Below are positions 5,995 to 60,718 of a stretch of DNA of 64,000 nucleotides, one piece after another. The stretch lies in assembly GCA_964568625.1 (NCBI GenBank), contig CAZMQG010000001.1, positions 19,393 through 83,392 on the forward strand. Reading direction: 5' to 3'. The DNA is from an uncultured Pseudomonadota bacterium. GTDB lineage: Bacteria > Babelota > Babeliae > Babelales > RVW-14. Each line of letters starts with the position of its first letter. Position 1 is the first letter of the stretch. Below the pieces are notes generated by a model. The model had not been told where the DNA came from. It worked only from the letters and a program-made list of their open reading frames with translations, and did no database searches. Position numbers and translations under genes: made by a program.

Positions 5995-6816
5995 TTACAT
6001 AATATGATGCTTATAATATTTAAGTATTTTGGCTCTAGTTTTAGAGGCATTTATAGGATACCCCCAATCACTCCATCCGTCTTTTAACGCAGGATAAGGC
6101 GCAATAATTGGATTAACCCATTCATCAAAAAAATTCACACCCTCAAGCATGCCAGGATAATATGGTACAGGATCACCAATTTTATGATCAGGCAAATAGC
6201 CTAAACCTTTTACATCTGCAACTGAAATTAAAATGCACATTTTTACCAATTCTAGGCTTATGGGATAATTTAGCTGAACAGTCATACTTTTTAAAAATTT
6301 TAGGTAGCGTTTAACACTTATACGTTTTCGCATAACATCGCCAAATTTATAATGCATTCCAACCAGAATAGCAACAAGACGCATATCAACATCCCGCAGC
6401 CCAAATTCTTCACCAATGTTTTTAAAATCCAAATTGTTCAGCTTTGGAATATTGCGAGATTGATACGCCTTACACCCAGTCAAATAATCAAAACCCACTT
6501 CAGGATGCGAACTTTTTCCCTTCCAATCAAATTTATTATCACCACACTTTCCAATGTCATGAAGAAAAGCCGCTAAAACCAAAATATTTTTGTATTTTTT
6601 TATGTCTATCCCAACAGTCCAAGGGTATTCTTTATTTTGCAACCAAGAGGCAACCGTTCTTAAAACCCAAATTGAATGCTCATAAACATCTCCGGAATGA
6701 TATGAATGATCATCACTTTTATAAAACTGCATATCTTTCATTAAATCTTTTATTGCAAAACATGAACAAAAAATAAAAATAAACAATATCAATGCCAAAC
6801 ATTTTTTAATACACAT
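5995..6816 (-). CDS. HD-domain (HDIG-type) metal-dependent phosphohydrolase with N-terminal signal/lipoprotein-like peptide
   Basis: H...HD...H pattern: GDVYEHSIWV, AAFLHDIGKCG, SSHPEVG. N-terminus MCIKKCLALILFIFIFCSCFA. GGGGGAG SD immediately upstream. Confidence 0.6.
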   Translation of the reverse strand: MCIKKCLALILFIFIFCSCFAIKDLMKDMQFYKSDDHSYHSGDVYEHSIWVLRTVASWLQNKEYPWTVGIDIKKYKNILVLAAFLHDIGKCGDNKFDWKGKSSHPEVGFDYLTGCKAYQSRNIPKLNNLDFKNIGEEFGLRDVDMRLVAILVGMHYKFGDVMRKRISVKRYLKFLKSMTVQLNYPISLELVKMCILISVADVKGLGYLPDHKIGDPVPYYPGMLEGVNFFDEWVNPIIAPYPALKDGWSDWGYPINASKTRAKILKYYKHHIM

Positions 6817-7008
6817 TACTCCCCCTTCAATATTTAACCATTAATTCATGGTACTAAAGTTCAATAAATAAAAGCAATAAACAGTATTATGAAGCCTTTA
6901 AACATAACTCAAAGATTATTCCTAAAATATTGCTTTTTTTCTTATCAGTCAGTTAAGAAAAAGCACAGTTGTTTTTATTTTTCATAAAATTTATCCGCAA
7001 AGGGGACT

Positions 7009-8112: not shown

Positions 8113-8312
8113 TCCAAATATTTAATATAAAGACATTAGTGCATGCAAACGCTCATTAGCAAGGGCATTTAAACCATCGTTTTTTATTAAAATAAGTAAA
8201 TATGGGTAAAATTCTCTAGATTTTTATTAAATCCTAAGCTAGGCTTATAGCTTGTTATTTTTGGGGTATTTGTTTATTTTTTTAATATTTTTCCATTTTT
8301 TAAGGAGTTTTT

Positions 8313-9614
8313 ATGTTTCATGCGATTAAGCGCGCTCTGTGGGGCGACATTTCAGGAGAAGAGTTCAAACGGTTTGGACTATTATCTCTGACATTTTTGT
8401 TCATTATTGGTACATATTGGTTGATGAGACCTCTAAAAGACGGTCTTTTTATTAAGATTGTTGGCGCAAGCTACATTCCTTGGGCAAAAATTGCATCTTT
8501 CCTATTTATTGTTCCACTAATTTTGATCTACTCCAAGTTGGTTGACTTAGTCGCAAAACAAAAGCTCTTTTACATTATATGCACATTTTACGCATTACTA
8601 TTCTTTTTAATTTCATTTGCTCTAAGACACCCTACTATCGGACTTGCAAACACAGTTCCTGGTGCAGATAGACTTCTTGGTTGGATTATATATCTTTCAA
8701 TCGAAAGTTTTGGTTCTTTAGTAGTTGCGTTATTTTGGTCATTTGTTGCAAGTTCAACAGATACGTCATCTGCTAAAAAAGGTTATGCCCTAATTATTTC
8801 AGGCGCACAACTTGGTTCTATTGCCGGACCATTTTTGGCAAGTAATGCAAAAAGCTTTGGAATGCCTTTGTTAACAATTTTTGTTGCAATCGGAATCCTA
8901 ATTGTTCCTATGCTCATCAAATTGTTTATCACAGTTAACCCAAGCGCAGCTGAAGTAGCCCCTACTTCAACAGAAAAGAAAACCGGAATTATTGAAGGAT
9001 TAAAACTTCTTCTAACAAGACCATATTTGGCAGGTATTCTTGGCGTTGCAACATTGTACGAAATTATCGGAACAATCATCGACTATCAAATGAAGATGTC
9101 AGCTGAACAGGCTTTCCCTACCCCAGAAGCAATCACACAATTCCTTGGAAACTTTGGTATGGCTGCCAACAGCTTGGCACTTGTATTTGCATTAGTTGGA
9201 ACAAGCTTTTTCATCAGAAAGTTTGGGTTAACATTCTGCTTAGTTGCATTCCCAGTAACAATCGGAATCGTTGTTGGATGTGTATGGGCAATTCCAGGAA
9301 TCTGGGTATTGTTTGGAGCAATGGTTGCAATCAAGGGATTGAGCTATGCATTAAATAATCCATGCAAAGAAATTATGTACATCCCAACAAGTAAAGATGC
9401 TAAATTCAAAGCAAAAGGTTGGATTGATATGTTTGGTGGAAGATCCGCAAAAGCAGCCGGATCAGGCATCAACGCATTCTTTACAACTTTGTCAGAATTA
9501 ATGTTCTTCGGTTCAATCATCTCTCTTGGAATCGTAGGAATCTGGATTGTAGTTGCATTGTATGTCGGTAAGACAAACAAAAAACTTACAGAATCAGGTA
9601 CTATTATTAGCTAA
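8313..9614 (+). CDS. tlc: TLC-family nucleotide (ATP/ADP) transporter
   Basis: Polytopic membrane protein. The N-terminal region EEFKRFGLLSLTFLFIIGTYWLMRPLKDGLFIKIVGASYIPWAKIASFLFIVPLILIYSKLVD follows the TLC/NTT signature (F-x-Y-x-LR-x-KD ... G-A-E-x-IP-F-x-K ... Y-x-KL). At 433 aa it is shorter than canonical ~500-aa Tlc proteins. AAGGAG SD. Confidence 0.75.
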   Translation: MFHAIKRALWGDISGEEFKRFGLLSLTFLFIIGTYWLMRPLKDGLFIKIVGASYIPWAKIASFLFIVPLILIYSKLVDLVAKQKLFYIICTFYALLFFLISFALRHPTIGLANTVPGADRLLGWIIYLSIESFGSLVVALFWSFVASSTDTSSAKKGYALIISGAQLGSIAGPFLASNAKSFGMPLLTIFVAIGILIVPMLIKLFITVNPSAAEVAPTSTEKKTGIIEGLKLLLTRPYLAGILGVATLYEIIGTIIDYQMKMSAEQAFPTPEAITQFLGNFGMAANSLALVFALVGTSFFIRKFGLTFCLVAFPVTIGIVVGCVWAIPGIWVLFGAMVAIKGLSYALNNPCKEIMYIPTSKDAKFKAKGWIDMFGGRSAKAAGSGINAFFTTLSELMFFGSIISLGIVGIWIVVALYVGKTNKKLTESGTIIS

Positions 9615-19480: not shown

Positions 19481-20596
19481 TTAAAGATTCTTAATTCCAA
19501 TTCTATTCCAACCATCTGAAATTTTAGCAGCAACAGATTTATCAAAACAGACAGCAATTCCACAATCCCCACCACCAGCGCCAGAAAACTTAGATGCCGC
19601 CCCAAATTTCTGGGCTATTTGAATTAAGCATCCCAACTTTTTTGTTTCAAGATCGATCCCAGACTCAACCCCTAAATTAACAAGTAAATCTCGATTTTGA
19701 TTTATCAAATTAATTATTTCAACCTGATCACACTGTTCAAGAGCACTAACAAGCTTGCATACAACAGAATTTATTGCACCCATAATTTTTTGGTAGGCCT
19801 TCAAATTTTCTTGCTTAAATTTTTGCATCTTTTCAATCAATTTTGGGGTGAAAGCACTATAGCCAACAAACCCTATCAACAATTGCATATTCTCAGGCAA
19901 CTTAATTTCGCTAATTCTTAAATCAGGCCAGTCTAACAAAACAATATTACTTATATTTTTTGCAGAGCAAATCTCGTTTTTAAGCCATTCTGAATTAAAA
20001 ATTTTGTAGATAATCGGCTTTTGATAAGTCGAACAGGCAACGTCAAATCCGCTGCCAAGTTTTCCCGATGCAGAGTAATGCGACAAGCATGCAAGTTTAA
20101 ATACTAACTCCAAGCCTTCACTTGAATCAATATTAAAATCATGAAACTTTAAAATAGACTTGCAAACGGCAACCGTTACAGCAGCACTACTCCCAAGCCC
20201 GGGTTTTACAAAAATAGAGTCATCACTTTTGACAACAGATAACTCCGAATAAACTGATAATTCAAAAGGCTTTATTACAACACCCTGCTCAGTTAAAAAC
20301 TGTAGGCAATTTTTAATGACACAAAAACAGACATTGAATTTTGCAATAAGATGTTCAGGCAAAACTGGGGCAACGGAAAGGTGCCCCATAAGATTTTTCA
20401 GAGTCCATTGCAGAATAACATTTTTTAACCCTATATTCTCAGAATTAAAAATAATTTTTTTGGATTCTTGAATTCGTGCTGTAACAAATTTATTAACAGG
20501 GAGAACTATGCAACTATGCCCAGGCTCAAGAATGCTCCATTCTCCGGAGAGCATAATCTTACCCGGCGCTTTAACCTCAATCACCGGCCACTCCAC
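19481..20596 (-). CDS. mvaK2: phosphomevalonate kinase (GHMP family)
   Basis: GTG start overlapping the MVD stop by 20 nt. KAPGKIMLSGEWSILEPG (PMK-type APGK-x-x-L-x-GE-[YW]-x-x-LEPG), GHMP motif PGLGSSAAVTVA, C-terminal SGAGGGDCGIAV. Confidence 0.7.
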   Translation of the reverse strand: MEWPVIEVKAPGKIMLSGEWSILEPGHSCIVLPVNKFVTARIQESKKIIFNSENIGLKNVILQWTLKNLMGHLSVAPVLPEHLIAKFNVCFCVIKNCLQFLTEQGVVIKPFELSVYSELSVVKSDDSIFVKPGLGSSAAVTVAVCKSILKFHDFNIDSSEGLELVFKLACLSHYSASGKLGSGFDVACSTYQKPIIYKIFNSEWLKNEICSAKNISNIVLLDWPDLRISEIKLPENMQLLIGFVGYSAFTPKLIEKMQKFKQENLKAYQKIMGAINSVVCKLVSALEQCDQVEIINLINQNRDLLVNLGVESGIDLETKKLGCLIQIAQKFGAASKFSGAGGGDCGIAVCFDKSVAAKISDGWNRIGIKNL

Positions 20597-21563
20597 TTAT
20601 AATCGTTTGAATGTCTTCAATTATTTTAAGTTCAGATAAAATTTTATCCTGATACTTTTCAAGAGTTAGAATCTTAACATTAGGACCGGCATCAATTGTA
20701 AAATAACACTGAATCCCATCAGCTCGTAATCGATTAACCAATTCAATAATTTTAATTGTTTTATCCGTCCAGTAATTTATTGTAGGAGTAGACGTATGCA
20801 TTGTTTCATGCATTTCAAGACAATCAACCTGTGCAAGTTCGCCAAGAGTCTCTAAGTCTTTATTTGCAATAGCATTCAGCATAGGTTTTATGCGTCTCTC
20901 AGAAGTTCCAAGCCAATCCTGATAGATTTTACTAGTCTTAGCAGTAATCTGCATAGCATGACTTGAACTTATAGGCTTCTGTTTGGCCTGAACCACTGCA
21001 ATAATTATTTTCAAATCAGGCCAATGATCAGCCTTAAAAAGCTGTTCTGAATACGAATCACTTCCCTGGGAGCAAACGCCTTTGTGCCACAGATTAAATC
21101 CACCCAGTATAGACCTGGATGCAGATCCAGACCCACGACGTGCTAAAATTGAAAGTTCTCTAACATTAAGATTTAGACTACAAAGTTCATTCAACCCTTT
21201 TGCAAGAGCAGCAAAACCGCTTGCGCTGCTGGCAAGCCCTGCAGCAGTTGGAAAGTTATTTACAGAATTAATCTGGAAAAAAGAATCTTGTAGAAACACA
21301 CCTTGTGGAGACTTGTGAGTTGCAAATTTTTTGCGAAAAATATGCAAAAATCGCAAAATTTTCACATTGGATTCGTCACTGGCAAAAGTCCCATTAAGCC
21401 TGATTGTATCAGAATCAGTGAACCCTAATTCTGTAGTTGTTTTTAAAGCATCAAGGGAAATAGATATACTGCTTTTTGTCGGCAGCATAAAAAATTCATC
21501 TCTTTTTCCCCAGTATTTAATTAAAGCTATATTTGCATTTGCCGATGCGATAACGGTATTCAT
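20577..21563 (-). CDS. mvaD: diphosphomevalonate decarboxylase
   Basis: ANANIALIKYWGKRDE...PTKSSISISL and AAGLASSASGFAALA, the typical MVD signatures. Confidence 0.85.
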   Translation of the reverse strand: MNTVIASANANIALIKYWGKRDEFFMLPTKSSISISLDALKTTTELGFTDSDTIRLNGTFASDESNVKILRFLHIFRKKFATHKSPQGVFLQDSFFQINSVNNFPTAAGLASSASGFAALAKGLNELCSLNLNVRELSILARRGSGSASRSILGGFNLWHKGVCSQGSDSYSEQLFKADHWPDLKIIIAVVQAKQKPISSSHAMQITAKTSKIYQDWLGTSERRIKPMLNAIANKDLETLGELAQVDCLEMHETMHTSTPTINYWTDKTIKIIELVNRLRADGIQCYFTIDAGPNVKILTLEKYQDKILSELKIIEDIQTIISGVAGD

Positions 21564-22160: not shown

Positions 22161-23213
22161 CTAACCCAAAGGATCTGGCCAGAAAAAAAGAACTCCACAG
22201 TCTAGTTTCTCTTTACAAATCAAATCATTTAGCATGTCTCTTGTATCTCCCGCAATTTTTCTTATCAAAGGACTATCCAAACATTCTCTGTAAAAATCAT
22301 CACATAAAAACCAAGAATCACAATAGTTTACATAAGCCATGCAATGTCCATAAAATGGTTGTGCTAATTTTTCAAAATAAACCGCTTGCTTAGTTGCACA
22401 TTTAACAGCTTTTAATTTATAGACTTTTTTAGTACTAATTTTAAAAGAAATTTGAGAAAACACAGATTCAAACCCAGATACAATTTCATAAAAAATCTCT
22501 GGCGCATAAATTAAATCTGATACATGTTTTACCACAAAAAGATCCAATGATGGAATAAAAAGAAAAAAGAAATCCAATCCGTAATCATTAAATCCATGAA
22601 TAGGTAGATTCAAATCTCCATAAACATATTGAATTCCATTATCAATGGGTAAACGCGTTATTTCTTTTAAAGCTATAATAGATTTTTTTTCGTGAGAATA
22701 AAAAAAAGCATGAAGTTCTGAATCCACTATTTCTTTTAATAAAAGGTATTCAGACAACAATACAATACCACCAAACCCACAATCCCAAAACTCTTGGTAA
22801 TACATGCTGTTCATATATTTAAAGATCTCCCAGCATGGAGTATTTGAACAATTAATTATATGTTCACGTAATTCTGAAATTCTTAAATCTGAAAGTCTTT
22901 TCGAAGGTTCTCTTAAAAAAGACATTAATAACTCTTCATTGCAAGTAAATTTTTTAAGATTTTCTCTTAATATTTTTAATTGAACTTCCAACTCATTTTT
23001 AGGCTCTTTTGTTTGATCTATATATGAACAAAATTGGGGAGACTGCAATAAACATTGTAAGGTTGCATTACAAAAACAAATACCTCTTTCTGCGTCATTA
23101 TAAAATGGAATAGGAAAGGTAGGTTGCCCAGGCAAAATAATTGAAAAAGCTAAAGAACAAAAGATTAGATTAATGCTTGTTGATAACATTAATAAAAATC
23201 TTATAACTTTCAT
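22161..23213 (-). CDS. eukaryote-type ubiquitin-specific protease (USP/UBP, peptidase C19)-like protein with signal peptide
   Basis: Cys box ERGICFCNATLQCLLQSPQF (Cys46, codon 23078..23076). His box YKLKAVKC...FYGHCMAYVNYCDSWFLCDDFY (His290, codon 22346..22344). N-terminus MKVIRFLLMLSTSINLIFCSLAFS. Confidence 0.65.
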   Translation of the reverse strand: MKVIRFLLMLSTSINLIFCSLAFSIILPGQPTFPIPFYNDAERGICFCNATLQCLLQSPQFCSYIDQTKEPKNELEVQLKILRENLKKFTCNEELLMSFLREPSKRLSDLRISELREHIINCSNTPCWEIFKYMNSMYYQEFWDCGFGGIVLLSEYLLLKEIVDSELHAFFYSHEKKSIIALKEITRLPIDNGIQYVYGDLNLPIHGFNDYGLDFFFLFIPSLDLFVVKHVSDLIYAPEIFYEIVSGFESVFSQISFKISTKKVYKLKAVKCATKQAVYFEKLAQPFYGHCMAYVNYCDSWFLCDDFYRECLDSPLIRKIAGDTRDMLNDLICKEKLDCGVLFFWPDPLG

Positions 23214-23273: not shown

Positions 23274-23831
23274 CTAGCATAAATTGGCACCCAATTGAAG
23301 TAGAATTGTAACTATTCCTACATACCCCTTGATAGATGCATAAAATAAAGGCGTTTCACCGGAATTATCTTTGGCATTTACACTCGCACCTCTTGCAAGC
23401 AACAATCTAACCAATCCCTCATGCCCACCAAAGACTGCACAATGTAAAGGGGTAAATCCCAATAATGTTCTATAATTTATCTCCGATCCTTCATCCAAAA
23501 GAATCTGTGCTATATCTTCACGTCCACTACGTGCCGCTAAGTGTAAAGGTATTTCCCCAAATGTTTTTGATGGGATATTAACTAGTGCGCCATTTCTAAT
23601 TAAAAATCGTACTCTTAAAGCATAACCATCTCTAACGGCTTTACAAAGTAAAGTTTCACCTACACAACCATTTTGAGCATTAACATCGCCACCTGCAAGA
23701 ATTAGTTTTGTAATTTCCGTAAAATAGATTGTGTCTAATGCAATTCCTGCTCTATCCATAGCTTGCAACGCAAAGCCAATAAATAAGACACTATGTATTA
23801 CACTAATCAAATATATATTTTTAAAATTCAT
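23274..23831 (-). CDS. ankyrin-repeat protein with signal peptide
   Basis: Start trimmed to MNFKNIYLISVIHSVLFIGFALQA (ATG 23831). Four to five ANK repeats: GETLLCKAVRDGYALRVRFLIRNGALVN, EIPLHLAARSGREDIAQILLDEGSEIN, FTPLHCAVFGGHEGLVRLLLARGASVN, ETPLFYASIKGYVGIVTILLQLGANL. Confidence 0.85.
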   Translation of the reverse strand: MNFKNIYLISVIHSVLFIGFALQAMDRAGIALDTIYFTEITKLILAGGDVNAQNGCVGETLLCKAVRDGYALRVRFLIRNGALVNIPSKTFGEIPLHLAARSGREDIAQILLDEGSEINYRTLLGFTPLHCAVFGGHEGLVRLLLARGASVNAKDNSGETPLFYASIKGYVGIVTILLQLGANLC

Positions 23832-23866
23832 AGCAAATTTAGCCTCATGCCATATAAATGTTACAC

Positions 23867-24556
23867 TCAAAAAACTAAAATTAATGCCCATGTTAGTAAG
23901 ACCGTAAAAAAAACAGAGTCAAACCGATCGAGAAAACCTCCATGCCCAGGTAGCACATTACCAACATCTTTTAAGCCTTTACGTCGTTTTAAAATGGAAA
24001 TTAACATACCACCAAGAAATGCTACCACTGTAAAAATTAACGACATTAAAAGAGTTATTGTAATTGTTAAAATAGTTATTTTGGAAAAATAATAACTAAT
24101 AGGTTCAATTTTAATTTTTGGTAAAATAAAGATGTTTAAAAGTAACACACCTACAAAGCTACCAAAAAATCCTTCCCAAGACTTGCCGGGACTAACTTTT
24201 GGGTAAATCTTATGAACACCCCATGTCTTTCCAAAAAAATATCCAAATGTATCAGCTGTCCATGCAACCAAAAATGGATACAAAGGAAGAAACAAATCAA
24301 TATAATGAAATCGATAGTTAAGAGAAATTAAACTTAACACCGGTAAAATTGGATAAAAAACGGTTACTATCCATGAATATGGGGAATCAAAATTAACAAG
24401 TTTTGGCCATTCAAAAATAAGAACCAACGTAAGAATCATAAACAGCAACAATGAGAACATCGCAACTGAATGCAAGTATGCTCCACCAAAACAAAAAACA
24501 AGAATAAGCGATGTAAATAATCGCTTGATAAATTCAGCACTAAAAATAAAAATCAT
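23867..24556 (-). CDS. cdsA: phosphatidate cytidylyltransferase (CDP-diglyceride synthase)
   Basis: C-terminal signature SILKRRKGLKDVGNVLPGHGGFLDRFDS. Multi-TM protein. ATG 24556 forms an ATGA overlap with the truA stop. Confidence 0.85.
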   Translation of the reverse strand: MIFIFSAEFIKRLFTSLILVFCFGGAYLHSVAMFSLLLFMILTLVLIFEWPKLVNFDSPYSWIVTVFYPILPVLSLISLNYRFHYIDLFLPLYPFLVAWTADTFGYFFGKTWGVHKIYPKVSPGKSWEGFFGSFVGVLLLNIFILPKIKIEPISYYFSKITILTITITLLMSLIFTVVAFLGGMLISILKRRKGLKDVGNVLPGHGGFLDRFDSVFFTVLLTWALILVF

Positions 24557-26780: not shown

Positions 26781-29198
26781 TTATTCAAAATCCCCGCCTT
26801 GACCACCTTGAGGATTAACACCATTGGTTTCTTTATCAAAAAATGTCACTAATTTTTTACTGCGTGACGGATGACGCAACTTGCGCAAAGCCTTAACTTC
26901 GATCTGACGAATACGTTCTCGAGTAACTGAAAAATCTTTGCCCACCTCTTCAAGAGTATGCTCAGATGCAACATCTATTCCAAAACGCATCTTCAACACT
27001 TTTTCTTCTCGTGGGGTAAGAGATTTTAAAACCTCGCGAACCTTTTCTTTTAGGTCTTCATTAACAACCGCATCAACAGGTGAATACTCATTCTCATCTT
27101 CAATAAAGTCTTTTAATGAGGTATCATCGCTGTCTCCAACCGGAGTTTCAAGTGATACAGGCTCTTTTGAAATCTTAATAATATTTTTGATCTTTTTCTC
27201 ATCAAGATTCAATTCTTTAGCTAACTCGGCATAACTTGGTTCACGGCCAGCTTCCTGAATATACGTACGTGTTATTTTATTTATTTTGCTTAATGTTTCA
27301 ACCATGTGAACAGGAACACGAATGGTACGAGACTGGTCTGCAATTGCTCGAGTTATAGCCTGACGAATCCACCAAGTTGCATAAGTTGAAAACTTAAATC
27401 CTCGTTCGAATTCAAATTTTTCAACAGCCTTAAGCAATCCAATATTACCTTCTTGAATCAAATCCAAAAAATGTAACCCTCTGTTTATATATTTTTTTGC
27501 AATGTTAACTACCAGTCGCAAGTTTGCACGAGCCAAATCGTCTTTTGCTTCTTTATCTTTATGCTGAGCCTTTACAAACTGCTTATACAAAGACATCATT
27601 TTGTCTTTTGAAAGCCCGGCTTCCTGCTCTGTTTTTTTAATCATTTTATAAGAACTACGAACTGAAGCATCAAGGGCGGCCAACTGTCCCAAATCATCTT
27701 GAGTTGGTTTTTTTATTCCCTTATAGAATTTGAGTTTTTCCTCGCCAATCTTAATTTCAGATTCGCGTTCTTGAACTTTGGCAATCAACTTTTCAATTCG
27801 TTTCCCAAACTTTCTTATCAATTTGTTTGAAAACTTAATCTCACCAATGGCCTGAATTACCTTTTTCTTATTTTCCTCTACCTTTGCCAACATCTCTTTC
27901 TTTTTAGATTCATTTGAGAGCTGAGGTCGATATGAATGATAAATTTTATCTTCATTTTCAATAAGATTTTTGATTTTACCAATCTGCCCTAAAAGCCTAC
28001 TTCGCTCTTCCTCAAATTTTGGAGAATTATCTTCATCAAAATCAGAAAACTGAATGACATCCTTCAAAAACATTGGATCTCGACCAAGTCGCTCTTCAAA
28101 TCCTATTAATTCTTTGGCTACAAAAGGAAATTTAGAAATAGAATCAATAGAGTCGCGCTTACCTTGAGCAATTTTATCGGCAATAACTTTTTCTGTTGTT
28201 TTATTTAAAAGCGGAATTTTTCCAATCTCTTTTAGATAAAGTTTAACCGGATCATTTAACTGGCTAGGTTCAATCAAGCCTCTAAGCTTCTCTAACTCTT
28301 TATCATGCTCAGACTCTTCTTCAAACCCTGAGTACTCAGTCCTTTCCAATGACGATTTTAAATCCTTAGTCATTGGAGCAAAGGAGGCAACTTCATGCTG
28401 TTCCAAAAATACGTCTGCCTCTCCTCCACCAGCCTCAAGCTCTTCCTGCATTATCAGGTCAATGTTTTCTTTTTCAAGAATTCCTAAAAGCTCATTTGTC
28501 TCTTCTTCACCGATTTTGTGTTTTGTAGTAAAAAGAATTAATTCTTCATAACTCAAAACACCGTCACACTTACCTTTTTCAATCAATGCAGCAACTTGTT
28601 TTTCTACACTTTTAAGAGTATTTCCCGAAACATCACCATCCTCAATGTCAACAATGGCAAGATCTTCTTCTTCAACATTGACATCTTCCGGCAAATGTCC
28701 TTCGTCGTCCCCTCCAACACGCTTAGCTACAACATCCGCTTCTTTTTTATCATGAATCAACTTCTTAACAGCTTCCTTTGACTCACTGCCGGACGTTAAA
28801 CTTTTTTTATCGGTTAAAGCGTCAGTAGATCGAACGATTTTACTCTTATTTTTTAAATCTTTTTCTTTTAAAACATTTTTAGTTTTTGATACAGCCTTAA
28901 CCTCCTGTACCTTTTTAGCAACTTCTTTTTTAATAACAACAGGCTTTGCTGCCTGTTTTATCTTAGATGCAACAGGGGCCGCTATTTTTTTTACAACCAC
29001 GGTCTTGGAGGTCGGATACTTTGCAATCACAATCTTAGATTTACCAGCAGATTTAACGGCACTTTTTTTGATAACTTTTTTTGATACAGCCTTAACAACC
29101 ACTTTTGAACTTTTTTTCACACCGAACCTTACAGATTTGGCAGAGGCTTTTGCTCTACTTTTAATAATTTTTTTTGTCTTAGCTAATTTTTTTATCAT
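26781..29198 (-). CDS. rpoD: primary sigma-70 factor with ~130-aa Lys/Ala/Val-rich N-terminal extension
   Basis: Region 2 [54 protein letters not shown], region 4 [31 protein letters not shown]-terminus [53 protein letters not shown]... Confidence 0.9.
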
Positions 29199-41485: not shown

Positions 41486-44400
41486 CTATTTACTTAATGC
41501 GGTCAAATCAGTAGTAACGTCATTAATCATTGTTGTAAACGTTTTTCCACTGGCAACTAATTTTGATGTTACAAGAGTAGCATTTGCATACCAAGCTTTT
41601 AATGCTTCTAGTTTTGTCTTATCTGTCTTCGGTCTTGCATTGTGCAAATTAGTTAAAGCAGTCCAGAAACTGGTCTGAACTGTTGTATAAACTAAAGTCG
41701 AATTTGCAGCTACATTTGTAGCCACACTTGTTACCAAATTTTGTAGCACTAACAATTGTGCATCATAAGTTGAAGTTGTAACTGTAAAACTCTTTAATAT
41801 ACTGTTCACCCTTGATATCTCAATTGCCAATAAGTCTGCATTAATATCACTAATCATTGTTGTAAAATTTTTATCAGCGGCAACTAGTTTTGATGCCGAG
41901 AGAGTTGCATACCAATTGGTTAGGGTTTCATACCAGGACTTTAAAGTAGTTAATTTTGCTTTATCTGTTTTAGGCCTTGCATTATGCAAACTTGTTAATG
42001 CAGCCCAAAAGTTTGCTTGTTCAACTGTGTAGTCAAGCGTCTGATTTGCTTGAAAAGCTGATGCTACACTTGTTACCAAATTGGGCAAAATAGGCAACTG
42101 AGAATCATAAGTTGAAGTTGTAACTGTAAAAGTTTTTAATATATTATCAACTCTTGCCATCTCAGCAGCTGCTATCAAATTTGCAAAATCTGAATTGATG
42201 TCATTAATCATACTAGTAAAATTTTTATTAGCAGCAACTAACTTCGATGCTACTAATGTCGCATACCAAGTATTTAATGTTGTATACCAAGAAATTAAGG
42301 TCGTTAATTTAGTCTTATCCGTTTTAGGCCTTGCATTATGTAAACTTGTTAATGCGGTCCAAAAACTAGTTTGAACAGGTGAGTAATCAAGAGACTGATT
42401 CGCCTGAAAATTCGCAGCTATACTTGTTACCAAATTTGGTAATATCGATAACTGAGAATCATACGTCGAAGCTGTCACAGTAAAATTCTTTAATATACCG
42501 TTAACCCTTGCCATTTCAGCCGCTTGCACTAAAGACTGATCTATTTTTGTAAAATCCGAATTAATATCATTAATCATACTAGTGAAATTTTTACCAGAGG
42601 CAACTAACTTTGATGCAACTAGTGTCGCATACCAGGTATTTAACGTTGTATACCAAGTTTTTAAGGTAGTTAGTTTAGTCTTATCTGATACCGGCCTTGC
42701 GTTATGTAAACTTGTTAATGCGGTCCAAAAACTCGCCTGCACCGGAGTATAGTCAAGAGCCTGATTTGCTTGAAAGTTTCCTGCAATGCTTGCCACCAAA
42801 TTTGGCAGTATTGATAACTGAGAATCATAAGTTGAAGCTGTAACTGTAAAATTATTCAATATATTACTTACTCTTGCCATCTCTGCAGATTGAGCCAAAG
42901 CCTGATCTATCTTTTTAAAATCTGAATCAATATCACTAATCATTGTTGTAAAACTTTTATCAGCAGCAACTAATTTTGATGTTTTAAGAGTTGAGTCTGT
43001 ATACCAACTTTTTAGTGCTGCTAATTTTACCTTATCATTACTAGGTCTAATCTTATGCAAATTAGTTAAAGCCAACCAAAAACTCGGTTGATACTGTGTA
43101 TAATCATACACTGAACTAGCAGGCACACTTTTTGCCAAGTCTTGCAATGCCAATAATTGAGAATCATAACTTGAACTAGCCAAAAGAACATTTGTATTTG
43201 CAGGTGTAAAACTACTTAATATATTATTAACCCTTGTCATTTCAGCAATTTTTACAGCAGACGCTTTATTTGCAACTTCTATATCTGTTCCAAGCTGCAT
43301 TAACCAATTTGCTAAATCCGAATTTTGCGCAAAATTCAAAAAAGATTTATTCATTGCATTATTTATCAAAACTTTTAAATCAGCCAAAGTCGAAGATGTT
43401 CTATTATTATAAAAATTTTTAATTGCAGTATAAATTGAGTTACTAGAACTTGGATAATCCTGTAAAAACGTCTGATTAAACATACCTGTAGAAACACCAA
43501 CAACATTTGCATTCAACAATGCTGGCGTTCCTGATTTTGTTTTATCATTTAATATAGCAGTCAAAGCTGATTTTACTTCATCCACTAGTCTGCCACTCCA
43601 ACTTTTAAGATCAGATTTTTGGGATGAAGTCAAAAAAGCTTTAGATTGAGCATTGTTTAACAATAGCTGCACATCTCCTAATGGATAAAGATTCCTGTTG
43701 TTATAAAAATTTTGAATTATCGTATAAATCGAACGACTTGAGCTTGGATAATTCTGTAAATAAGACTGATTAAAGCTTGAAATTAAATTTATACTCAAAG
43801 AATCAGTCGTACTTGAAGCATCAACAACATTTGCATTCAATAAAGCAGGAGTTCCAGATTTTGTAGAATCATCTAAAATTGCCTTTAAAGAAACTTTTAC
43901 ATCATTTTGCACCTGCATTAAACAATTTTTAATATCATCCTTCTGTGATGAGGTTAAAAATGCTTTATCTTGAGCATTTTTCAATAAAATTTGTAAATCC
44001 CCATATGAGGATGATGTCCTATTATTATAGAAATTTTTAATTGCCGTATAAATAGAACTTCCCAAACTTGGATAATCTTGTAAATATGCCTGATTAAAAA
44101 CATCGTTAGATACTGAAACAATATTCGCATCCAATAAGGCTGGAGTACCAGATTTTGTAACATCTCCAAGGATTGCCACCAAGGATGATTTAACAGCTTC
44201 CGTTACAGCACTCGTTTGCTGAGAAACAGCCTGCACAGTAGTAGATATCGTAGATGGAACAACAACCGGTACGGCAGAAGTCAGCCGTGGCAATTGAGTT
44301 TGGGTTGTCGCAGCAACAATTTGAGTTGCAACCGGTTGAGCAACAGCCTGTACCTGTGATTGCTGAGTTTGTGTTTTAGCCTGTGCCTGTAATTGAGCCT

Positions 44401-45220
44401 GCAACTGCTGTGCTTGTAACTGCTGAGCTTGTAATTGAGCTTGCAGTTGTTGAGCTTGTAATTGAGCTTGCAGTTGTTGTGATTGTAGCTGTGCTTGCGC
44501 TTTTAACTGTTGAGCTTGCAATTGCTGAGCCTGTAATTGAGACTGAAGTTGCTGCGTTTGTAACTGAGACTGAGCATCTTGCCCCACTGAAGAAGTTATA
44601 GGGGTAGTTAACGGAACCGTTGATGATACACGTGTAGCATAAGCATCTGATGATAACCCCGAAGTTGTTGTAAGTCCTCCAGTAGAAACAACACCTGATG
44701 TAGGCGTAGTACCTGAACCTGATGTAGACACCAAATCTGACGTCGATCCCAAAATGGATTGCCCTGGAAGACTAGATCCAGTAGCAGATGAAGTTGAATC
44801 CGATAATAAATCTAAAAGCAATTGGTCTTGTGCTTGCGCCAAAGGTAACTTATCTGATAAAGATCCCGATTGTAATGACAAGTCTTGCGGAATTCCACTT
44901 GTAGGCAAAGATATTCCCGACGCTTGAGATTCTTTAGAAACTCCAACATCACCAGATGGCTCCAATAATTCTGATGACAAATCTTGAATAGAACTATCTT
45001 GAAAAGGCTCACCTTGTATAGTTAATTTTTGATTAGAATTTGTTGATTCCCCTGAACCGGCAATATCCCCAGATTGTTTTAATAAATCTAACGATAAATC
45101 TTGGGAAAAAAAATTCTGATCAGTATTTGAAGAATATACAGACTGATTTGTCGCCAAGTACATTCCTGTAACCATAATAAAGACCAGTATCGTTGACATC
45201 TCTATTGAATGCCACTTCAT
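41486..45220 (-). CDS. 1244-aa repeat-built surface/secreted protein (orphan)
   Basis: N-terminal hydrophobic anchor STILVFIMVTGMYLA. Short QDLS..LL..SGD repeats, an S/T/G-rich linker, a Q-rich (QLQAQ)n tract, then 3 + 5 long tandem repeats (see repeat features). Confidence 0.8.
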   Translation of the reverse strand: MKWHSIEMSTILVFIMVTGMYLATNQSVYSSNTDQNFFSQDLSLDLLKQSGDIAGSGESTNSNQKLTIQGEPFQDSSIQDLSSELLEPSGDVGVSKESQASGISLPTSGIPQDLSLQSGSLSDKLPLAQAQDQLLLDLLSDSTSSATGSSLPGQSILGSTSDLVSTSGSGTTPTSGVVSTGGLTTTSGLSSDAYATRVSSTVPLTTPITSSVGQDAQSQLQTQQLQSQLQAQQLQAQQLKAQAQLQSQQLQAQLQAQQLQAQLQAQQLQAQQLQAQLQAQAKTQTQQSQVQAVAQPVATQIVAATTQTQLPRLTSAVPVVVPSTISTTVQAVSQQTSAVTEAVKSSLVAILGDVTKSGTPALLDANIVSVSNDVFNQAYLQDYPSLGSSIYTAIKNFYNNRTSSSYGDLQILLKNAQDKAFLTSSQKDDIKNCLMQVQNDVKVSLKAILDDSTKSGTPALLNANVVDASSTTDSLSINLISSFNQSYLQNYPSSSRSIYTIIQNFYNNRNLYPLGDVQLLLNNAQSKAFLTSSQKSDLKSWSGRLVDEVKSALTAILNDKTKSGTPALLNANVVGVSTGMFNQTFLQDYPSSSNSIYTAIKNFYNNRTSSTLADLKVLINNAMNKSFLNFAQNSDLANWLMQLGTDIEVANKASAVKIAEMTRVNNILSSFTPANTNVLLASSSYDSQLLALQDLAKSVPASSVYDYTQYQPSFWLALTNLHKIRPSNDKVKLAALKSWYTDSTLKTSKLVAADKSFTTMISDIDSDFKKIDQALAQSAEMARVSNILNNFTVTASTYDSQLSILPNLVASIAGNFQANQALDYTPVQASFWTALTSLHNARPVSDKTKLTTLKTWYTTLNTWYATLVASKLVASGKNFTSMINDINSDFTKIDQSLVQAAEMARVNGILKNFTVTASTYDSQLSILPNLVTSIAANFQANQSLDYSPVQTSFWTALTSLHNARPKTDKTKLTTLISWYTTLNTWYATLVASKLVAANKNFTSMINDINSDFANLIAAAEMARVDNILKTFTVTTSTYDSQLPILPNLVTSVASAFQANQTLDYTVEQANFWAALTSLHNARPKTDKAKLTTLKSWYETLTNWYATLSASKLVAADKNFTTMISDINADLLAIEISRVNSILKSFTVTTSTYDAQLLVLQNLVTSVATNVAANSTLVYTTVQTSFWTALTNLHNARPKTDKTKLEALKAWYANATLVTSKLVASGKTFTTMINDVTTDLTALSK
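41489..43246 (-). repeat. five in-frame tandem repeats of 112-122 codons (family B)
   Basis: Units start on the minus strand at 43246, 42886, 42520, 42166 and 41824 (anchor AEM(A/T)RV / IEISRV). Consensus AEMARVNxILKNFTVTASTYDSQLSILPNLVTSIAxNFQANQxLDYxPVQxSFWTALTSLHNARPKTDKTKLTTLKxWYTTLNTWYATLVASKLVAxxKNFTSMINDINSDF. The three middle copies are also highly similar at DNA level. Confidence 0.9.
43250..44200 (-). repeat. three in-frame tandem repeats of ~98-108 codons (family A)
   Basis: Anchor KSGTPALL(D/N)AN(I/V)V at about 44156, 43863 and 43538. Shared FNQ.YLQ(D/N)YPS...SIYT.I(K/Q)NFYNNR...L...L(K/N)NA..K(A/S)FL(T/N).(S/A)Q(K/N).D(I/L). Confidence 0.85.
44340..44590 (-). repeat. Gln-rich low-complexity tract incl. 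a perfect 27-nt tandem duplication (44425-44451 / 44452-44478)
   Basis: Encodes QSQLQTQQLQSQLQAQQLQAQQLKAQAQLQSQQLQAQLQAQQLQAQLQAQQLQAQQLQAQLQAQAKTQTQQSQ. The plus strand shows GAGCTTGTAATTGAGCTTGCAGTTGTT twice in a row. Confidence 0.9.
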
Positions 45221-52820: not shown

Positions 52821-53504
52821 ATGATTTCAACAAAGCTCAGAGTTAAAGAGTATCTAAGAGAACGTCGTTGGACAACAAAAGTCCTGGCTGAAAAAACCGG
52901 GATGTCCGAAAGTTATCTAACTCATATAAAAAATGGAACACGTCGCTGGAATGAAGATGCACTTAAAAAATTAGCTGAAGCTTTCGAAGTTGAGGCAACA
53001 GATCTTTTTGAAACATCAAACCAAAGTCGCAAAGATCTTCCAATAAACATTCAAATTCCAGACGAAATTAAAAATCAACTTTCAAATTACACTCTAAAAT
53101 TAAAAATCGTTCCTGTGGTAGGCCAAATTCCGGCTCAACCATCAGCTTACAATAATCAGCTGATCCAAGTATCATCCGGATACAAAGATCAATTTGTAAC
53201 AGTACTTGATAGCGATGATGAAAACATGTTCTGCTTATCAGTTGACGATAACAACATGGCACCTAATTTCGTAAAAGGTGACTTACTAGTTGTTTCTCCA
53301 TCCACATGGACAAATTCCGGCGACATAGTTGCTGTTGAATATGGAACAGAAACACCTGTTAGAGCCATCATGCAAGTAAACTTTATGGACGACCTGGTTG
53401 TCCTTGAAGCAGTTAACCATAAAAAAGCTCCAATTGCTCTCTCAAGAGGCAAGGATCAATTCAGAATTATTGGAAAAGTAATTCACAGATTCCAAAAAAT
53501 ATAA
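52821..53504 (+). CDS. XRE-HTH + S24 (LexA/CI)-like repressor with apparently substituted catalytic dyad
   Basis: HTH WTTKVLAEKTGMSESYLTHIKNGTRRWNEDALKKLAEAF. C-terminal S24-like fold VPVVGQIPAQP...FCLSVDDNNMAPNFVKGDLLVVSP...GDIVAVEY...PVRAIMQV...IIGKVI. By-eye alignment with E. coli LexA puts Asn145 (53253..53255) at Ser119 and Arg at Lys156. Confidence 0.6.
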   Translation: MISTKLRVKEYLRERRWTTKVLAEKTGMSESYLTHIKNGTRRWNEDALKKLAEAFEVEATDLFETSNQSRKDLPINIQIPDEIKNQLSNYTLKLKIVPVVGQIPAQPSAYNNQLIQVSSGYKDQFVTVLDSDDENMFCLSVDDNNMAPNFVKGDLLVVSPSTWTNSGDIVAVEYGTETPVRAIMQVNFMDDLVVLEAVNHKKAPIALSRGKDQFRIIGKVIHRFQKI

Positions 53505-53595
53505 AACAAACTACATCAAATATTCGACAGCATCTGTTTTTACAATCTGTCGAATATTTGATCTCATAAAAGATTTTAATAAAAAGGAGGTTATC

Positions 53596-54369
53596 ATGAA
53601 AAATATAAGAATTTTATTCCTGGCTACATTGACTGCAGGGCTCACCATTACAAATACATTTGCAATGGATGCAAGAGCAGCTACAAGCCATACTGAAAGC
53701 TCCACAAGACAAGATCTACAAATCCAATCAAGCCTATCTGTACTGCCAGATGAATTAATAGTAAAAATTTTAGCAGATTCCATAGAAGACGACTTTATAA
53801 AATGCACAGATCAAAGTATGCTACTCAAAAAAATAAATATTGCTATTACGGAATTAAAACAATTAAGACTTGTAAATCACGAATTTGCAAATTTTTTAAC
53901 AAATGAAACAATCATCTATATCTTAAGAGTTGCAAATCTAGCCGCATATGCAAACCAAATTAATCCTGACACAGGAGAAGCCTTATTGCACATGGCCATA
54001 CGCAGAGGTAAGTATATGTTAGCAAAAATTTTAATCAAAACAGGAGCAGATGTTAACAAACAACTCATAACCCCAAGAGACCCCAAAATTACCCGACAAT
54101 TCCCTGTTGGAACAACTCCTCTTCATACTGCAATAAAGGCGGGTAATCTCAGCATCGTGGAATTATTGGTTCACTATGGTGCCAATATTACTGCAACAAT
54201 CACTAAATACGAGCAGATCTTTACCCCTTTGGATATAGCAAGAAATAATGGAGATGATAATATCATTCACATCCTTGAAAATGCTTATACAACAAAAGGC
54301 ATTGCTATCCCTGCTACCGATGAGATAGAAAATGACCCTGTTTTTATAAATGCACCTCAGCATAACTAA
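53596..54369 (+). CDS. F-box + ankyrin-repeat protein with signal peptide (AnkB-like eukaryote-mimic)
   Basis: AGGAGG SD. Signal peptide MKNIRILFLATLTAGLTITNTFA. F-box LSVLPDELIVKILADS...LKQLRLVNHEFANFL (53731..~53895). ANK repeats GEALLHMAIRRGKYMLAKILIKTGADVN, GTTPLHTAIKAGNLSIVELLVHYGANI, FTPLDIARNNGDDNIIHILENA. Confidence 0.8.
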   Translation: MKNIRILFLATLTAGLTITNTFAMDARAATSHTESSTRQDLQIQSSLSVLPDELIVKILADSIEDDFIKCTDQSMLLKKINIAITELKQLRLVNHEFANFLTNETIIYILRVANLAAYANQINPDTGEALLHMAIRRGKYMLAKILIKTGADVNKQLITPRDPKITRQFPVGTTPLHTAIKAGNLSIVELLVHYGANITATITKYEQIFTPLDIARNNGDDNIIHILENAYTTKGIAIPATDEIENDPVFINAPQHN

Positions 54370-57613: not shown

Positions 57614-60600
57614 ATGAGAAAAAACTTGATTGCGATAAGTATCCTGATGTTTTTAACTCAAATACTAATCGCAAAAAATGGTAGCATCGAACATAATCTA
57701 GTTCGCTCAATCTCAACAGAATCACTAGGAGTTGATGTAAACACATCAGCATATTCCGGTCCAGACCAATTTTATATTGTAACTAATGCAAATGAAGACA
57801 AATCACTTTCTCGCATTGCAATGGCAAGGGGAGACGACGGAAATTGGACTGCAGTATTTATGCCTATGGCCCCAGCCACCGGCGATGTAACCATTAACTT
57901 GCAAAATGAGCAAGACAGTCCATTAAATGCAAAAGACATTACTAAACTTGTAATTGGATCAGATACATTTGCATATAAACGCCCCGTCGTTGGCCTAGTT
58001 GAAGGTGAAGACCCTGATCAAAAAGTACTTTTATTTCAAGTAACTGATACAAACGAAGGCAAGATTATTTTAAAAACATCAAGCATGGATAACTTAACTG
58101 AATATGCTTTAAAAGATACCAGCACATATAACGCCAAAGGACTTCACGCACTTGCTGCAACACAAAATTTAGAAAAAATTTTAGGAACTCCTCTGATCTT
58201 TGCACTTGTTTCTGACAGTGCAAATTTAAACGAAGCAACGCCTGAAAATATTGGTATTGTTCCTGTAATAGTTAAAGCATCTTATTCCGGGCTAAACCCA
58301 CTTGATGCAACAAATTTTGATAAATCCGGACAAAATAATAAAGCAATATCCATAATAAGTGCGCTAAAAATAACAACCAATCCAACGTTTTTGGAAAATT
58401 CCACCGTAGATATGTTTTGGGATGACACGCTACAAAGATTATTCATCGCTACATCAAAAATACAAACAGGCGCAGGAAACAGTGATGGAGCCATAGCTCT
58501 TCTGGTTGGAAATATTAAAAGCGAAACTACAAAAAAAGGAACAATCCAAAGCTTACAAATACAAAAATGCGCTAATATTTTAGATGCAAATTGGCCGTCG
58601 GGAAACGCCAACAAAAATTGGATTGTCGGGTATAAAAACGATACAACAACAACAGATACAAAAGAGCAAATTATAAATCTTCACAAAGTGCGCACAATGC
58701 ATACAAGCACAGGCAAAGATTACGTTATCCTAAATGGAGAGGTTGCGAAGGGAACAGACAGTACTCTTACCAGCAGCACAGTATGCGAAGTGTATGCGCT
58801 ACCGGTGATGCCTAGCACCAGCACAGACGCCGGAAAATTGGCAACAGTAAATGATGATGGAACGTTTGCCGTAATAACCCAGGGAAGTGAGCTACTCAGA
58901 AATACAGATACTCAAGCCGTAGTTGGCGTAAATCCTCAATATATTGTTCACACTAATACTGATGCTGCATTTGATAACGCCAAAATAATGGATATGCAAA
59001 TTTCAGGTGATACCGTCTACATTTCAGTAACCGGATCAAGAAGTAATGCCGGCGAAGATACTGCAGGCGAAGCCGGAATATTCGCATCAACTGCTATTTT
59101 TAATGAGAAAAGAGTAATTCGTGCTTGGACTCCATGGCAAAGAGTTATGGGATATACGGATAAAGTTTTTGGACTTGGTTTTGATATAGGTTCAAATAAT
59201 TTTTGGTACATTGGACCTGATCAACAAACAGGTAAAATAACAATTTGGAGCTCAGGAGATACAAGTGAAACTGGAATTCACGAAGGCAGCCCACTCTGCA
59301 CCGCTCTAAGTAGTTTTTTTAAGAAAGATGAGCTTGGTGTTGTAAATCTATTCAATTTTGACGATGAAACTCCCGGTTTTAAAACATGGAAACCTGAATC
59401 TTCATATCCGGCTTTTTCAATGATGGTTGCACTCGGGCTTGGAAAAGTTGCTTTAATTGAAACAGGAAAAAGATCAAACACAACTAATAATAAATCACCG
59501 TTTGAACCAACAAAAAAATTTGAAGCCAATCTTGTAGGAAACTCAACATCCCCCGCAACAGAAACAACCAACGTTTTTGTTTTTAATGATACGGTAACTC
59601 AAGCATTAGGATTTATAACATCAGCTGAAGTTGCTCGCATTAAAACCTCACTGCTTAATGCTACAAAACTAAAACAAAATACATATACCGAAGGTGGTTG
59701 GTTATTTATTGGAGGACAAAATGGAGTTGCAGTCCTACGCAAAAGTAATGGCGCAGGATGGAACACCACATCAGGACTTAATAAATTAAGCAACACTGAT
59801 TTTCCCGGCAAGGGATACTCTTTTCTAAAGCTAACACCTCCATCTGAATATAGCTTTTCAAACATTCGCAAACTAATCTCTGATGGAAAGTATCTTTATA
59901 TTTTGACCCGATCGGATTTATACAGGCTAGAAATGAACGCCAATGATTTTACAGACTATGTAACAATAAATTCCACGCGAATAAAGCTACTTGCAAGCAT
60001 AAATAACACATTTCAAAATGACAGTAACACCCAAGTCATGAACAAATATATTGATGAATTATTTGATATCGTTTTAGTTGACAATACTGACAATGCAAAA
60101 AAACTTGCTATCGCAACGACTCAAGGCGTTTGGGTATCAAACACAATAGAAGACGAATTTGCAGTAGACGATATTAAATGGAACAAAAACATCAGTAGAA
60201 CAGGCAGAGAAGAAATATATCTCGGCCCATCATTAAAATTTGATTTTTTACCGGTCAAACGAGGCGGCACAACCACAGATTCTAACGGGATAAACACTAT
60301 CGACGGCAACCTGTACGTAACTGCAATTGATTATAAATTTGCAGAGTTGGTCGTTTGTCGGTTTAATGTGCAAAACGGAGCAGTGACAATGTTCGACGAG
60401 CCTTATATTGCTGGAGGGGTTTATGGATACTCGGTTCCATACTTCTATAGATTAGCAGATTTAGGCGAAATATTTAGGGGAACCCAATTCGGACCGCTCG
60501 ATCACGTTGGACGAAAAGGTCAACTCTCTGAAAGTATAGGCGTAACTCCCGATCCAAGTAGTTTTTTACCTACAACAGAAGATGATCTAACATATTATAA

Positions 60601-60718
60601 AGCCATTGATCTTGACATGGATCCTCAAGCGGCTTTACATCTTTTTTCAATTATACAAAATACAGCATCCGGAGCTCTTTATATCCCCGGAGAATTTAAC
60701 GTTTTTGTAAATGAATAA
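57614..60718 (+). CDS. 1034-aa secreted orphan protein, paralog 1 of a tandem pair (beta-rich, propeller-like motifs)
   Basis: AAGGAG SD. Signal peptide MRKNLIAISILMFLTQILIA. Shares collinear motif blocks with the next gene (VRTMHTSTG, AWTPWQRVMG..KVFG, FSMMVA.G..K.ALI.T, NVFVF, GWLF.GG.NGVAVL.K..G.GW, FPG.GYSF.KLTP, SFSN.RKL, C-terminal PG(E/D)(F/W)...VNE). Confidence 0.8.
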   Translation: MRKNLIAISILMFLTQILIAKNGSIEHNLVRSISTESLGVDVNTSAYSGPDQFYIVTNANEDKSLSRIAMARGDDGNWTAVFMPMAPATGDVTINLQNEQDSPLNAKDITKLVIGSDTFAYKRPVVGLVEGEDPDQKVLLFQVTDTNEGKIILKTSSMDNLTEYALKDTSTYNAKGLHALAATQNLEKILGTPLIFALVSDSANLNEATPENIGIVPVIVKASYSGLNPLDATNFDKSGQNNKAISIISALKITTNPTFLENSTVDMFWDDTLQRLFIATSKIQTGAGNSDGAIALLVGNIKSETTKKGTIQSLQIQKCANILDANWPSGNANKNWIVGYKNDTTTTDTKEQIINLHKVRTMHTSTGKDYVILNGEVAKGTDSTLTSSTVCEVYALPVMPSTSTDAGKLATVNDDGTFAVITQGSELLRNTDTQAVVGVNPQYIVHTNTDAAFDNAKIMDMQISGDTVYISVTGSRSNAGEDTAGEAGIFASTAIFNEKRVIRAWTPWQRVMGYTDKVFGLGFDIGSNNFWYIGPDQQTGKITIWSSGDTSETGIHEGSPLCTALSSFFKKDELGVVNLFNFDDETPGFKTWKPESSYPAFSMMVALGLGKVALIETGKRSNTTNNKSPFEPTKKFEANLVGNSTSPATETTNVFVFNDTVTQALGFITSAEVARIKTSLLNATKLKQNTYTEGGWLFIGGQNGVAVLRKSNGAGWNTTSGLNKLSNTDFPGKGYSFLKLTPPSEYSFSNIRKLISDGKYLYILTRSDLYRLEMNANDFTDYVTINSTRIKLLASINNTFQNDSNTQVMNKYIDELFDIVLVDNTDNAKKLAIATTQGVWVSNTIEDEFAVDDIKWNKNISRTGREEIYLGPSLKFDFLPVKRGGTTTDSNGINTIDGNLYVTAIDYKFAELVVCRFNVQNGAVTMFDEPYIAGGVYGYSVPYFYRLADLGEIFRGTQFGPLDHVGRKGQLSESIGVTPDPSSFLPTTEDDLTYYKAIDLDMDPQAALHLFSIIQNTASGALYIPGEFNVFVNE

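Follow-up and report, generated by a model that had tools for sequence, protein, structure and literature searches.

The gene at positions 53596..54369 (+) of the stretch of Babeliales DNA analyzed here (64,000 nucleotides, hereafter the 64-kb window) encodes a 257-aa protein that we read, with somewhat better than even confidence, as a Sec-exported ankyrin-repeat protein used for host interaction by an intracellular parasite of the Babeliales. The open reading frame (ORF) is a real gene, and its exact coordinates were reproduced. A preliminary description of this DNA had presented the product as an F-box and ankyrin protein with a Sec signal peptide, an architecture like that of Legionella AnkB, and a likely role in hijacking host ubiquitination. 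The ankyrin (ANK) repeats, the anatomy of the signal peptide and a likely role in host interaction all held up in our analysis, and both peptide strings quoted in support of the F-box, LSVLPDELIVKILADS and LKQLRLVNHEFANFL, are present as described (residues 50-65 and 87-101). It is the F-box itself that could not be demonstrated. The N-terminal module consists of a genuine F-box-like first helix (H1) followed by a faint, out-of-register echo of helices 2 and 3 (H2/H3), and recruitment of host SKP1/CUL1 is therefore a possibility and not the default reading.

The three ANK repeats claimed earlier were recovered by the profile search that had been proposed for them. Pfam Ank matched the protein at 58.7 bits (E=3.8e-16; cut-off 21.1) and Ank_2 at 50.7 bits (E=2.8e-13; cut-off 27.3), and Ank_3, Ank_4 and Ank_5 also exceeded their Pfam cut-offs. 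The matches to the PDB are DARPins and ankyrins, with E values down to 7e-57. A full-length AlphaFold model, built from 4 sequences, contains three helix pairs (residues 126-148, 175-193 and 211-233) with a predicted local distance difference test score (pLDDT) of 76-92, and its N-terminal part has a pLDDT below 50. Profile matches above threshold, together with tandem helix-turn-helix units of ~33 residues, place the protein among the ankyrin-repeat proteins. The repeats are 51% identical within the family, and between repeats 1 and 2 lies an unusual 15-residue loop, LITPRDPKITRQFPVG, that has hardly changed among the closest relatives and in which P160, P163, F169 and G172 are invariant. The two short helices that join the module to the repeats may be a degenerate capping repeat. 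In the acidic tails of several paralogs (P0004, P0014, P0015, and the copies at 6104-7090 and 8001-8882 of locus L003) the short motifs [RK]x[LI]LDF[DS] and [PD]xFx[LI] recur, and the window protein has DPVFINA; such motifs may serve as short linear motifs for host binding.

At its other end, the protein begins with a predicted Sec (signal peptidase I) signal peptide. We judged this by manual feature analysis, looking for a positively charged n-region, a hydrophobic h-region of 10-15 residues and small residues at -3 and -1, and all of these were found: K2 and R5 lie in the n-region, the hydrophobic core extends over residues ~6-19, and the sequence T-F-A/M-D (residues 21-24, with the slash marking the predicted cleavage site) puts the site at 23/24. 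The layout MKNIKKLLL..GFI....AN.FA/M is common to all 12 of the 12 family members and hardly varies at N20, A23 and M24, and we infer that cleavage takes place here. In half the paralogs (P0004, P0008, P0010, P0011, P0014 and P0015) a lipobox-like Cys (xxGC at about residue 16, for example FIAGC or FIIGC) sits upstream of the conserved AN.FA/M site, and these proteins may be lipoprotein variants. When the signal peptides of the family were compared, this Cys was absent from the window protein and its closest relatives. The linker that follows differs in length among paralogs and has an AlphaFold pLDDT below 50.

The family is small and confined to Babeliales. An exhaustive HMMER search with the domain profile against 1.84 billion representatives gave 11 matches at E<=0.001, ten of which combine a signal peptide, a linker, the helical module and ANK repeats; the eleventh (P0012) is a spurious match to an unrelated repeat protein, and no canonical F-box protein was found among the matches. 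A search of 5.8 billion clusters yielded only 4 relatives of the window protein, with cluster members annotated as Candidatus Babeliales or TM6 metagenome-assembled genomes (MAGs), and a metagenome scan gave mostly ANK-only matches, the true relatives being only those at loci L004-L007. A further homology search, made with the alignment of the domain, gave a single protein and no new information. The shared architecture is a signal-peptide-like start, a variable linker, a family-specific module of ~75 aa and five helices, three ANK repeats, and an acidic tail.

The family also occupies a conserved slot, in which an OPT transporter gene and a lexA-like gene with helix-turn-helix (HTH) and S24 domains are followed by 1-3 tandem copies of the family gene and then by rpsF, rpsR and typA. 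The slot is the same in 2 reference Babeliales MAGs and 4 metagenome contigs, and in the window it holds a single copy. Arrays in which two to four paralogs lie in tandem were found at L002 (7131-9613), L003 (6104-8882), L006 (61-2594) and L007 (4001-5636). Those of L003 include a copy that is 14 residues shorter in the insert of the module (8001-8882) and an ORF with a signal peptide and ANK repeats that lacks the N-terminal module (6104-7090). Whereas the flanking proteins of the window are 81-97% identical to those of the MAGs, the ankyrin protein shares only 42-50% identity with any of their copies, and the family thus evolves much faster than its neighbors. Copy-number variation and fast divergence within a conserved neighborhood are the usual signature of host-interaction genes.

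The annotation of its relatives places the organism in the Dependentiae (TM6), a phylum whose members are obligate intracellular parasites of protists. Babela massiliensis encodes 126 ANK proteins, of which 79 have signal peptides, in addition to one F-box protein, one RING protein and three secreted C19 ubiquitin hydrolases, and type II is the sole secretion system detected in it (PMC4378268). Chromulinavorax destructans encodes 98 ANK proteins, 78% of them with signal peptides, and vesicles bud from its cells (PMC6561590). The literature on the phylum reads such signal-peptide ANK proteins as secreted effectors (PMC4378268, PMC6561590). Components of the type II secretion system (T2SS) are in the TM6 core gene set, and F-box domains occur across TM6 genomes (PMC4776705). 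By its sequence, the window protein appears to belong to this secreted repertoire, since it joins a predicted signal peptide to ANK repeats in a Babeliales genome. It resembles the other Dependentiae secreted ANK proteins in phylum and order, in its short ANK array behind a Sec signal peptide, in its presumed export by Sec followed by T2SS or vesicles, and in its expanded, fast-evolving paralog family, but it differs from them in the 75-aa module with an F-box-like motif and in the fixed slot beside the lexA-like gene and rpsF.

In the mechanism that we propose, the signal peptide would be cleaved and the protein exported via Sec, after which the mature protein could leave the cell by type II secretion, in outer-membrane vesicles, or by both routes, each of which is reported for the phylum. 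In Legionella, T2SS substrates are reported to be able to reach the host cytosol (PMC5478897). Once outside, the ANK groove and the conserved inter-repeat loop would bind a host protein, and the N-terminal helical module could provide a second interaction surface. How a protein with a cleavable Sec signal reaches the host cytosol had been raised as an open question in the preliminary description, which had also drawn a wider picture of ubiquitin-system genes in the window. Both points restate traits of the phylum that the Babela and Chromulinavorax literature already reports.

The same description had called the N-terminal segment a good F-box and had named the lack of an F-box profile hit among the outcomes that would speak against this assignment. 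That was the outcome of the search: no Pfam F-box family, PF00646 and PF12937 included (gathering cut-offs 20.5 and 24.3 bits), matched the window protein at E<=1, and a scan of the N-terminal segment by itself yielded none at E<=10. When 14 relatives were scanned with Pfam, F-box was the top recurrent non-ANK match, occurring in four of them at sub-threshold scores of 13.2-16.6 bits. These were P0011 (PF12937, 16.5 bits, E=0.007), P0009 (PF00646, 14.2 bits), a P0009-like copy in L002 (13.2 bits), and the short-insert paralog of L003 (PF12937, 16.6 bits, E=0.0069; PF00646, 15.0 bits, E=0.023), whose match spans positions 1-39 of the 43 in the F-box profile. A reference F-box profile, validated by its recovery of at least 49 distinct PDB F-box sequences and of Legionella AnkB (5K35) at E=3.2e-15, gave the native window protein 8.4 bits. 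Of three profiles made from versions of the family alignment (A2, A4 and, restricted to H1, A9), none picked up an F-box chain in the PDB at E<=10; the top-ranking matches were BTB-Kelch A55, Smaug, IL-10 and Rpo11, each with E>0.01.

Profile-profile comparison places the resemblance in the first helix. When the family was aligned to the validated F-box alignment with hhalign, the probability was 54-58% over 16 columns that cover H1 only (LPDELLxKILA); the H1 score of 25.2 compares with 8.9 +/- 2.2 for a column-shuffled null, and 0/50 shuffles reached it. The LP dipeptide of this helix, L53-P54 in the window protein, is kept in most relatives and is replaced by L-T in the P0004 group and by S-T in P0010. 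The second motif, LRLVNxxF, sits ~20 residues too far from H1 (L53/P54 to V93/F97, compared with the profile). Within the module, variation is greatest in the intervening insert (30% identity), which has indels of -5, -14 and +5 residues in paralogs. A free deletion scan scored the real sequences no better than sequences with a shuffled post-H1 part. With the register fixed, the second half added no score in the window protein (10.0 bits, compared with 10.7 for H1 alone; 25/300 shuffles equaled it) and raised the score only in P0009 and P0011, contributing nothing in 10 of the 12 members.

Structure prediction did not recover the F-box fold either. An AlphaFold model of the isolated domain, built from 13 sequences (mean pLDDT 80; predicted template modeling score, pTM, 0.67), has two long helices, at residues 52-68 (17 residues) and 73-93 (21 residues), and three short ones. 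Foldseek searches with this small all-helical domain, folded without SKP1, gave no F-box in the top 50 PDB matches (best E=1.7) and no F-box or PRANC match in the viral structure library BFVD (best E=0.52). Taken as an F-box, then, the module reaches no curated-profile threshold, does not place H1-H3 within the canonical ~40-50 residues, and gives no Foldseek match to a solved F-box. Two other kinships were considered and rejected. The sole non-ANK Pfam match of the window protein, LYRM2-like (PF20263; 23.4 bits, cut-off 26.8), we regard as helical noise, its score dropping to 15.6 bits when only the segment is scanned and its match landing on a different, C-terminal region in paralogs. For a SOCS-box/BC-box or BTB/BACK relationship, the sole Pfam trace was BTB_3 at E=0.019 in P0011.

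Several of our observations nonetheless weigh against the reading of the protein as an exported ankyrin protein whose module is not an F-box. The module's likeness to an F-box exceeds chance, with H1 at z ~7 relative to the shuffles. Deleting 18-20 insert columns produces an in-register H1-H3 hhalign alignment of 36-37 columns at a probability of 67-81%, and 0/30 tail-shuffled controls match it. The H1-like (48%) and H2/H3-like (52%) segments are conserved islands around the variable insert, about as conserved within the family as the ANK repeats, which is the pattern expected of a split F-box. Finally, the scanned part of the 64-kb window showed no T2SS genes. All but the last of these would fit a diverged F-box, in which H1 (LPDELxxKIL) and H2/H3 (LxxLRLVNxxFxxFL) form the SKP1-binding unit, with a helical hairpin of ~20 residues inserted between them, and in which the secreted protein would bring host SKP1-CUL1 to a target bound by its ANK repeats, in the manner of Legionella AnkB. 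The sub-threshold matches in 4 of the 14 relatives also favor this explanation, as do the position of the module ahead of a repeat domain (the usual arrangement in F-box proteins), the F-box proteins and ubiquitin-system genes reported from Dependentiae, and the USP-like ORF elsewhere in the window. Insert-deleted constructs come close to a Pfam cut-off without reaching one: over profile positions 1-37, the window protein scores 14.7-16.0 bits and the family consensus 18.1-19.4, against cut-offs of 20.5 and 24.3 bits. However, no member in its native form reaches a gathering threshold, and the hhalign gain from deleting the insert was only 0.2-2.9 score units after 35 registers had been tried. 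The silence of the second half in most members, the failure of the family profiles to recover any F-box from the PDB or from the 1.84 billion representatives, the long helices of the model (pLDDT 80) without an F-box match, and the loss of LP in some subfamilies count against it as well. On balance, we consider it unlikely that a diverged F-box explains this protein, and we hold the claim that the module is a true SKP1-binding F-box to be tentative to the same degree. The fuller proposal of a new, split F-box, made of an SKP1-binding three-helix core with a variable hairpin of ~20 residues and delivered by Sec and T2SS or vesicles instead of type III or type IV secretion, appears to us a shade more doubtful.

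Alternatively, the ankyrin protein could stay in the periplasm or envelope, never reach the host, and work on behalf of the bacterium, for instance by inhibiting or chaperoning enzymes that the cell exports. There are precedents in a self-protection ankyrin protein of Bdellovibrio and in the periplasmic AnkB of Pseudomonas aeruginosa, and a Sec signal peptide alone takes a protein only to the periplasm. In the half of the paralogs that have it, the lipobox-like Cys could mean lipoprotein anchoring, a weak hint in the same direction, but it is missing from the window protein and its closest relatives. Self-protection is also among the ANK functions that the Chromulinavorax paper lists for other host-pathogen systems (PMC6561590), yet the phylum literature treats ANK proteins with signal peptides as secreted effectors. 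Moreover, the variation in copy number and the low identity amid highly similar neighbors are easier to explain by an arms race with the host than by housekeeping, and the family occurs only in a narrow clade of parasites. We therefore think a purely bacterial function improbable and retain the host-directed, Sec-exported ankyrin protein as our reading.

Comparison with known systems helps to delimit what the module could be. The claimed likeness to Legionella pneumophila AnkB (LegAU13; PDB 5K35) stands for the order of domains, since both are small proteins in which a helical N-terminal module precedes about three ANK repeats, both come from amoeba-associated bacteria, and H1 reads LPEEVIVNTL in AnkB and LPDELIVKIL in the window protein. 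It does not extend to descent. AnkB is detected by the F-box profile that misses the window protein, in which H1 and H2/H3 lie ~20 residues further apart. The best of the NCBIfam Legionella Ank effector models (NF0430xx), AnkY, scored 24.5 bits against a cut-off of 600; the models overall gave 12-25 bits against cut-offs of 450-1400, and all matches lay in the generic ANK region. AnkB has a Dot/Icm signal and a C-terminal CaaX farnesylation motif, whereas the window protein has a Sec signal peptide and no CaaX motif at its C-terminus, ending in ...FINAPQHN with C71 as its sole Cys. Because type II is the only secretion system reported for the lineage, no Dot/Icm system is on record for it (PMC4378268). 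We detect no orthology between the sequences of the two proteins, and the window protein is AnkB-like in domain order only.

Eukaryotic F-boxes (PF00646/PF12937; SKP2, FBXW7, beta-TrCP) share with the module the first helix LPxE[IL][IL]xxI[LF], a later LxLVxxxF/W, and a position N-terminal to a substrate-binding repeat domain, but the module differs from them in spacing by ~20 residues, in its 17- and 21-residue helices, in its sub-threshold scores, and in the lack of a fold match. The ANK/PRANC proteins of poxviruses and giant viruses offer a further parallel, in that large paralog families of intracellular parasites combine ANK repeats with a degenerate F-box-like module that F-box profiles see poorly. 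In those proteins, however, PRANC is C-terminal to the ANK repeats and not N-terminal, and neither the window protein nor its N-terminal segment gave a Pfam PRANC match.

As the evidence stands, the gene adds one more candidate to the signal-peptide ankyrin effectors of Dependentiae that occur alongside ubiquitin-system genes, a phenomenon already described. If SKP1 binding were true, bacterial F-box mimicry would extend to a phylum without type III and type IV secretion, the F-box would be seen to tolerate a large H1-H2 insertion, and profile-based censuses would be under-counting effectors of this kind. Should the split F-box in particular be true, the tandem paralogs would be diversifying substrate receptors of SKP1-CUL1-F-box (SCF) complexes that are invisible to standard F-box profiles. 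In practical terms, the protein is a small, defined candidate for SKP1-binding and secretion experiments, encoded in a conserved locus and with natural variants in insert length.

Features of the ankyrin gene and its flanks (positions in the window; residues of the encoded protein)
Feature	Residues	Positions	Strand	Basis or remarks
Hairpin, perfect 16-nt inverted repeat with 16-nt loop		53515..53562	+	Between the lexA-like stop and the ankyrin gene
Shine-Dalgarno AAGGAGG		53584..53590	+	5 nt 5' of ATG; read directly from the sequence
Predicted Sec-type signal peptide, MKNIRILFLATLTAGLTITNTFA/MD	1-23	53596..53664	+	n/h/c anatomy; AXA-type site at 23/24
Variable polar linker, Ala/Ser/Thr-rich	24-49	53665..53742	+	19% mean pairwise identity
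F-box-like helix H1, LSVLPDELIVKILADSI	50-66	53743..53793	+	hhalign against F-box profile; AlphaFold helix 52-68
Insert of ~20 residues relative to canonical F-box, EDDFIKCTDQSMLLKKINIA	67-86	53794..53853	+	Predicted helical
Motif resembling H2/H3, LKQLRLVNHEFANFLT	87-102	53854..53901	+	F-box VxKxW register only after insert deletion
Two short helices joining module to ANK stack	103-122	53902..53961	+	AlphaFold helices 103-112 and 115-122
Three ankyrin repeats	123-235	53962..54300	+	Pfam, PDB matches, AlphaFold
Acidic, poorly conserved tail and stop codon	236-257	54301..54369	+	29% identity
Stable hairpin 3' of stop codon		54423..54460	+	dG -21.1 kcal/mol; z -5.4 vs shuffled

The ankyrin gene lies in DNA with a G+C content of ~34% for the window as a whole. 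The hairpin upstream of it (free energy, dG, -21.9 kcal/mol; z -7.4 relative to shuffled sequence) is probably a terminator or boundary of the lexA-like gene, and the one downstream of its stop codon is probably a transcription terminator. The lexA-like gene itself (HTH_3 and Peptidase_S24; 52821-53504 (+) in the window, 6370-7053 in L002 and 5527-6210 in L003) is 94-95% identical across genomes and always lies directly 5' of the fast-evolving ANK array, an arrangement that makes a regulatory link from the one to the other conceivable. The upstream palindrome was considered as an operator for this regulator and rejected. Locus L002 has a hairpin at the corresponding position but with a different sequence, and neither L002 nor L003 conserves the sequence of the palindrome; since the structure is kept and the sequence is not, a terminator is likelier than an operator.

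The wider picture drawn earlier had paired the ankyrin protein, as a putative E3 adaptor, with a USP-like gene ~30 kb away, as a putative deubiquitinase. The ORF is there, at 22161..23213 (-), but its Pfam UCH score of 19.6 bits falls below the cut-off of 23.9, and the pairing rests on two sub-threshold domain calls. This 350-aa ORF has a signal-peptide-like N-terminus (MKVIRFLLMLSTSINLIFCSLAFS), a Cys-box-like segment (GICFCNATLQCL) and a His-box-like segment (YGHCMAYVNYCDSWFLCDD), and is similar to the C19 ubiquitin hydrolases that Babela is reported to secrete. A second ANK protein (23274-23891 (-); Pfam Ank E=7.5e-33) is encoded directly upstream of it and, when read from an internal Met, has a signal-peptide-like start, MNFKNIYLISVIHSVLFIGFALQA/MD, with an A/MD-type site as in the protein of 53596..54369.

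Elsewhere in the window are four large ORFs of 508-1256 aa (537-4307 (-), 4353-5879 (-), 41486-45220 (-) and 57614-60718 (+)) with no Pfam match or a weak one to DUF5848; the 1034-aa ORF among them has a homolog with a signal-peptide-like start downstream of typA in L003. Genes of the mevalonate pathway, for a diphosphomevalonate decarboxylase and a GHMP kinase, lie at 19481-21563 (-) and are notable for a reduced parasite genome. An 805-aa sigma-70 protein encoded at 26781-29198 (-) has an N-terminal extension of ~300 residues preceding region 1.2.

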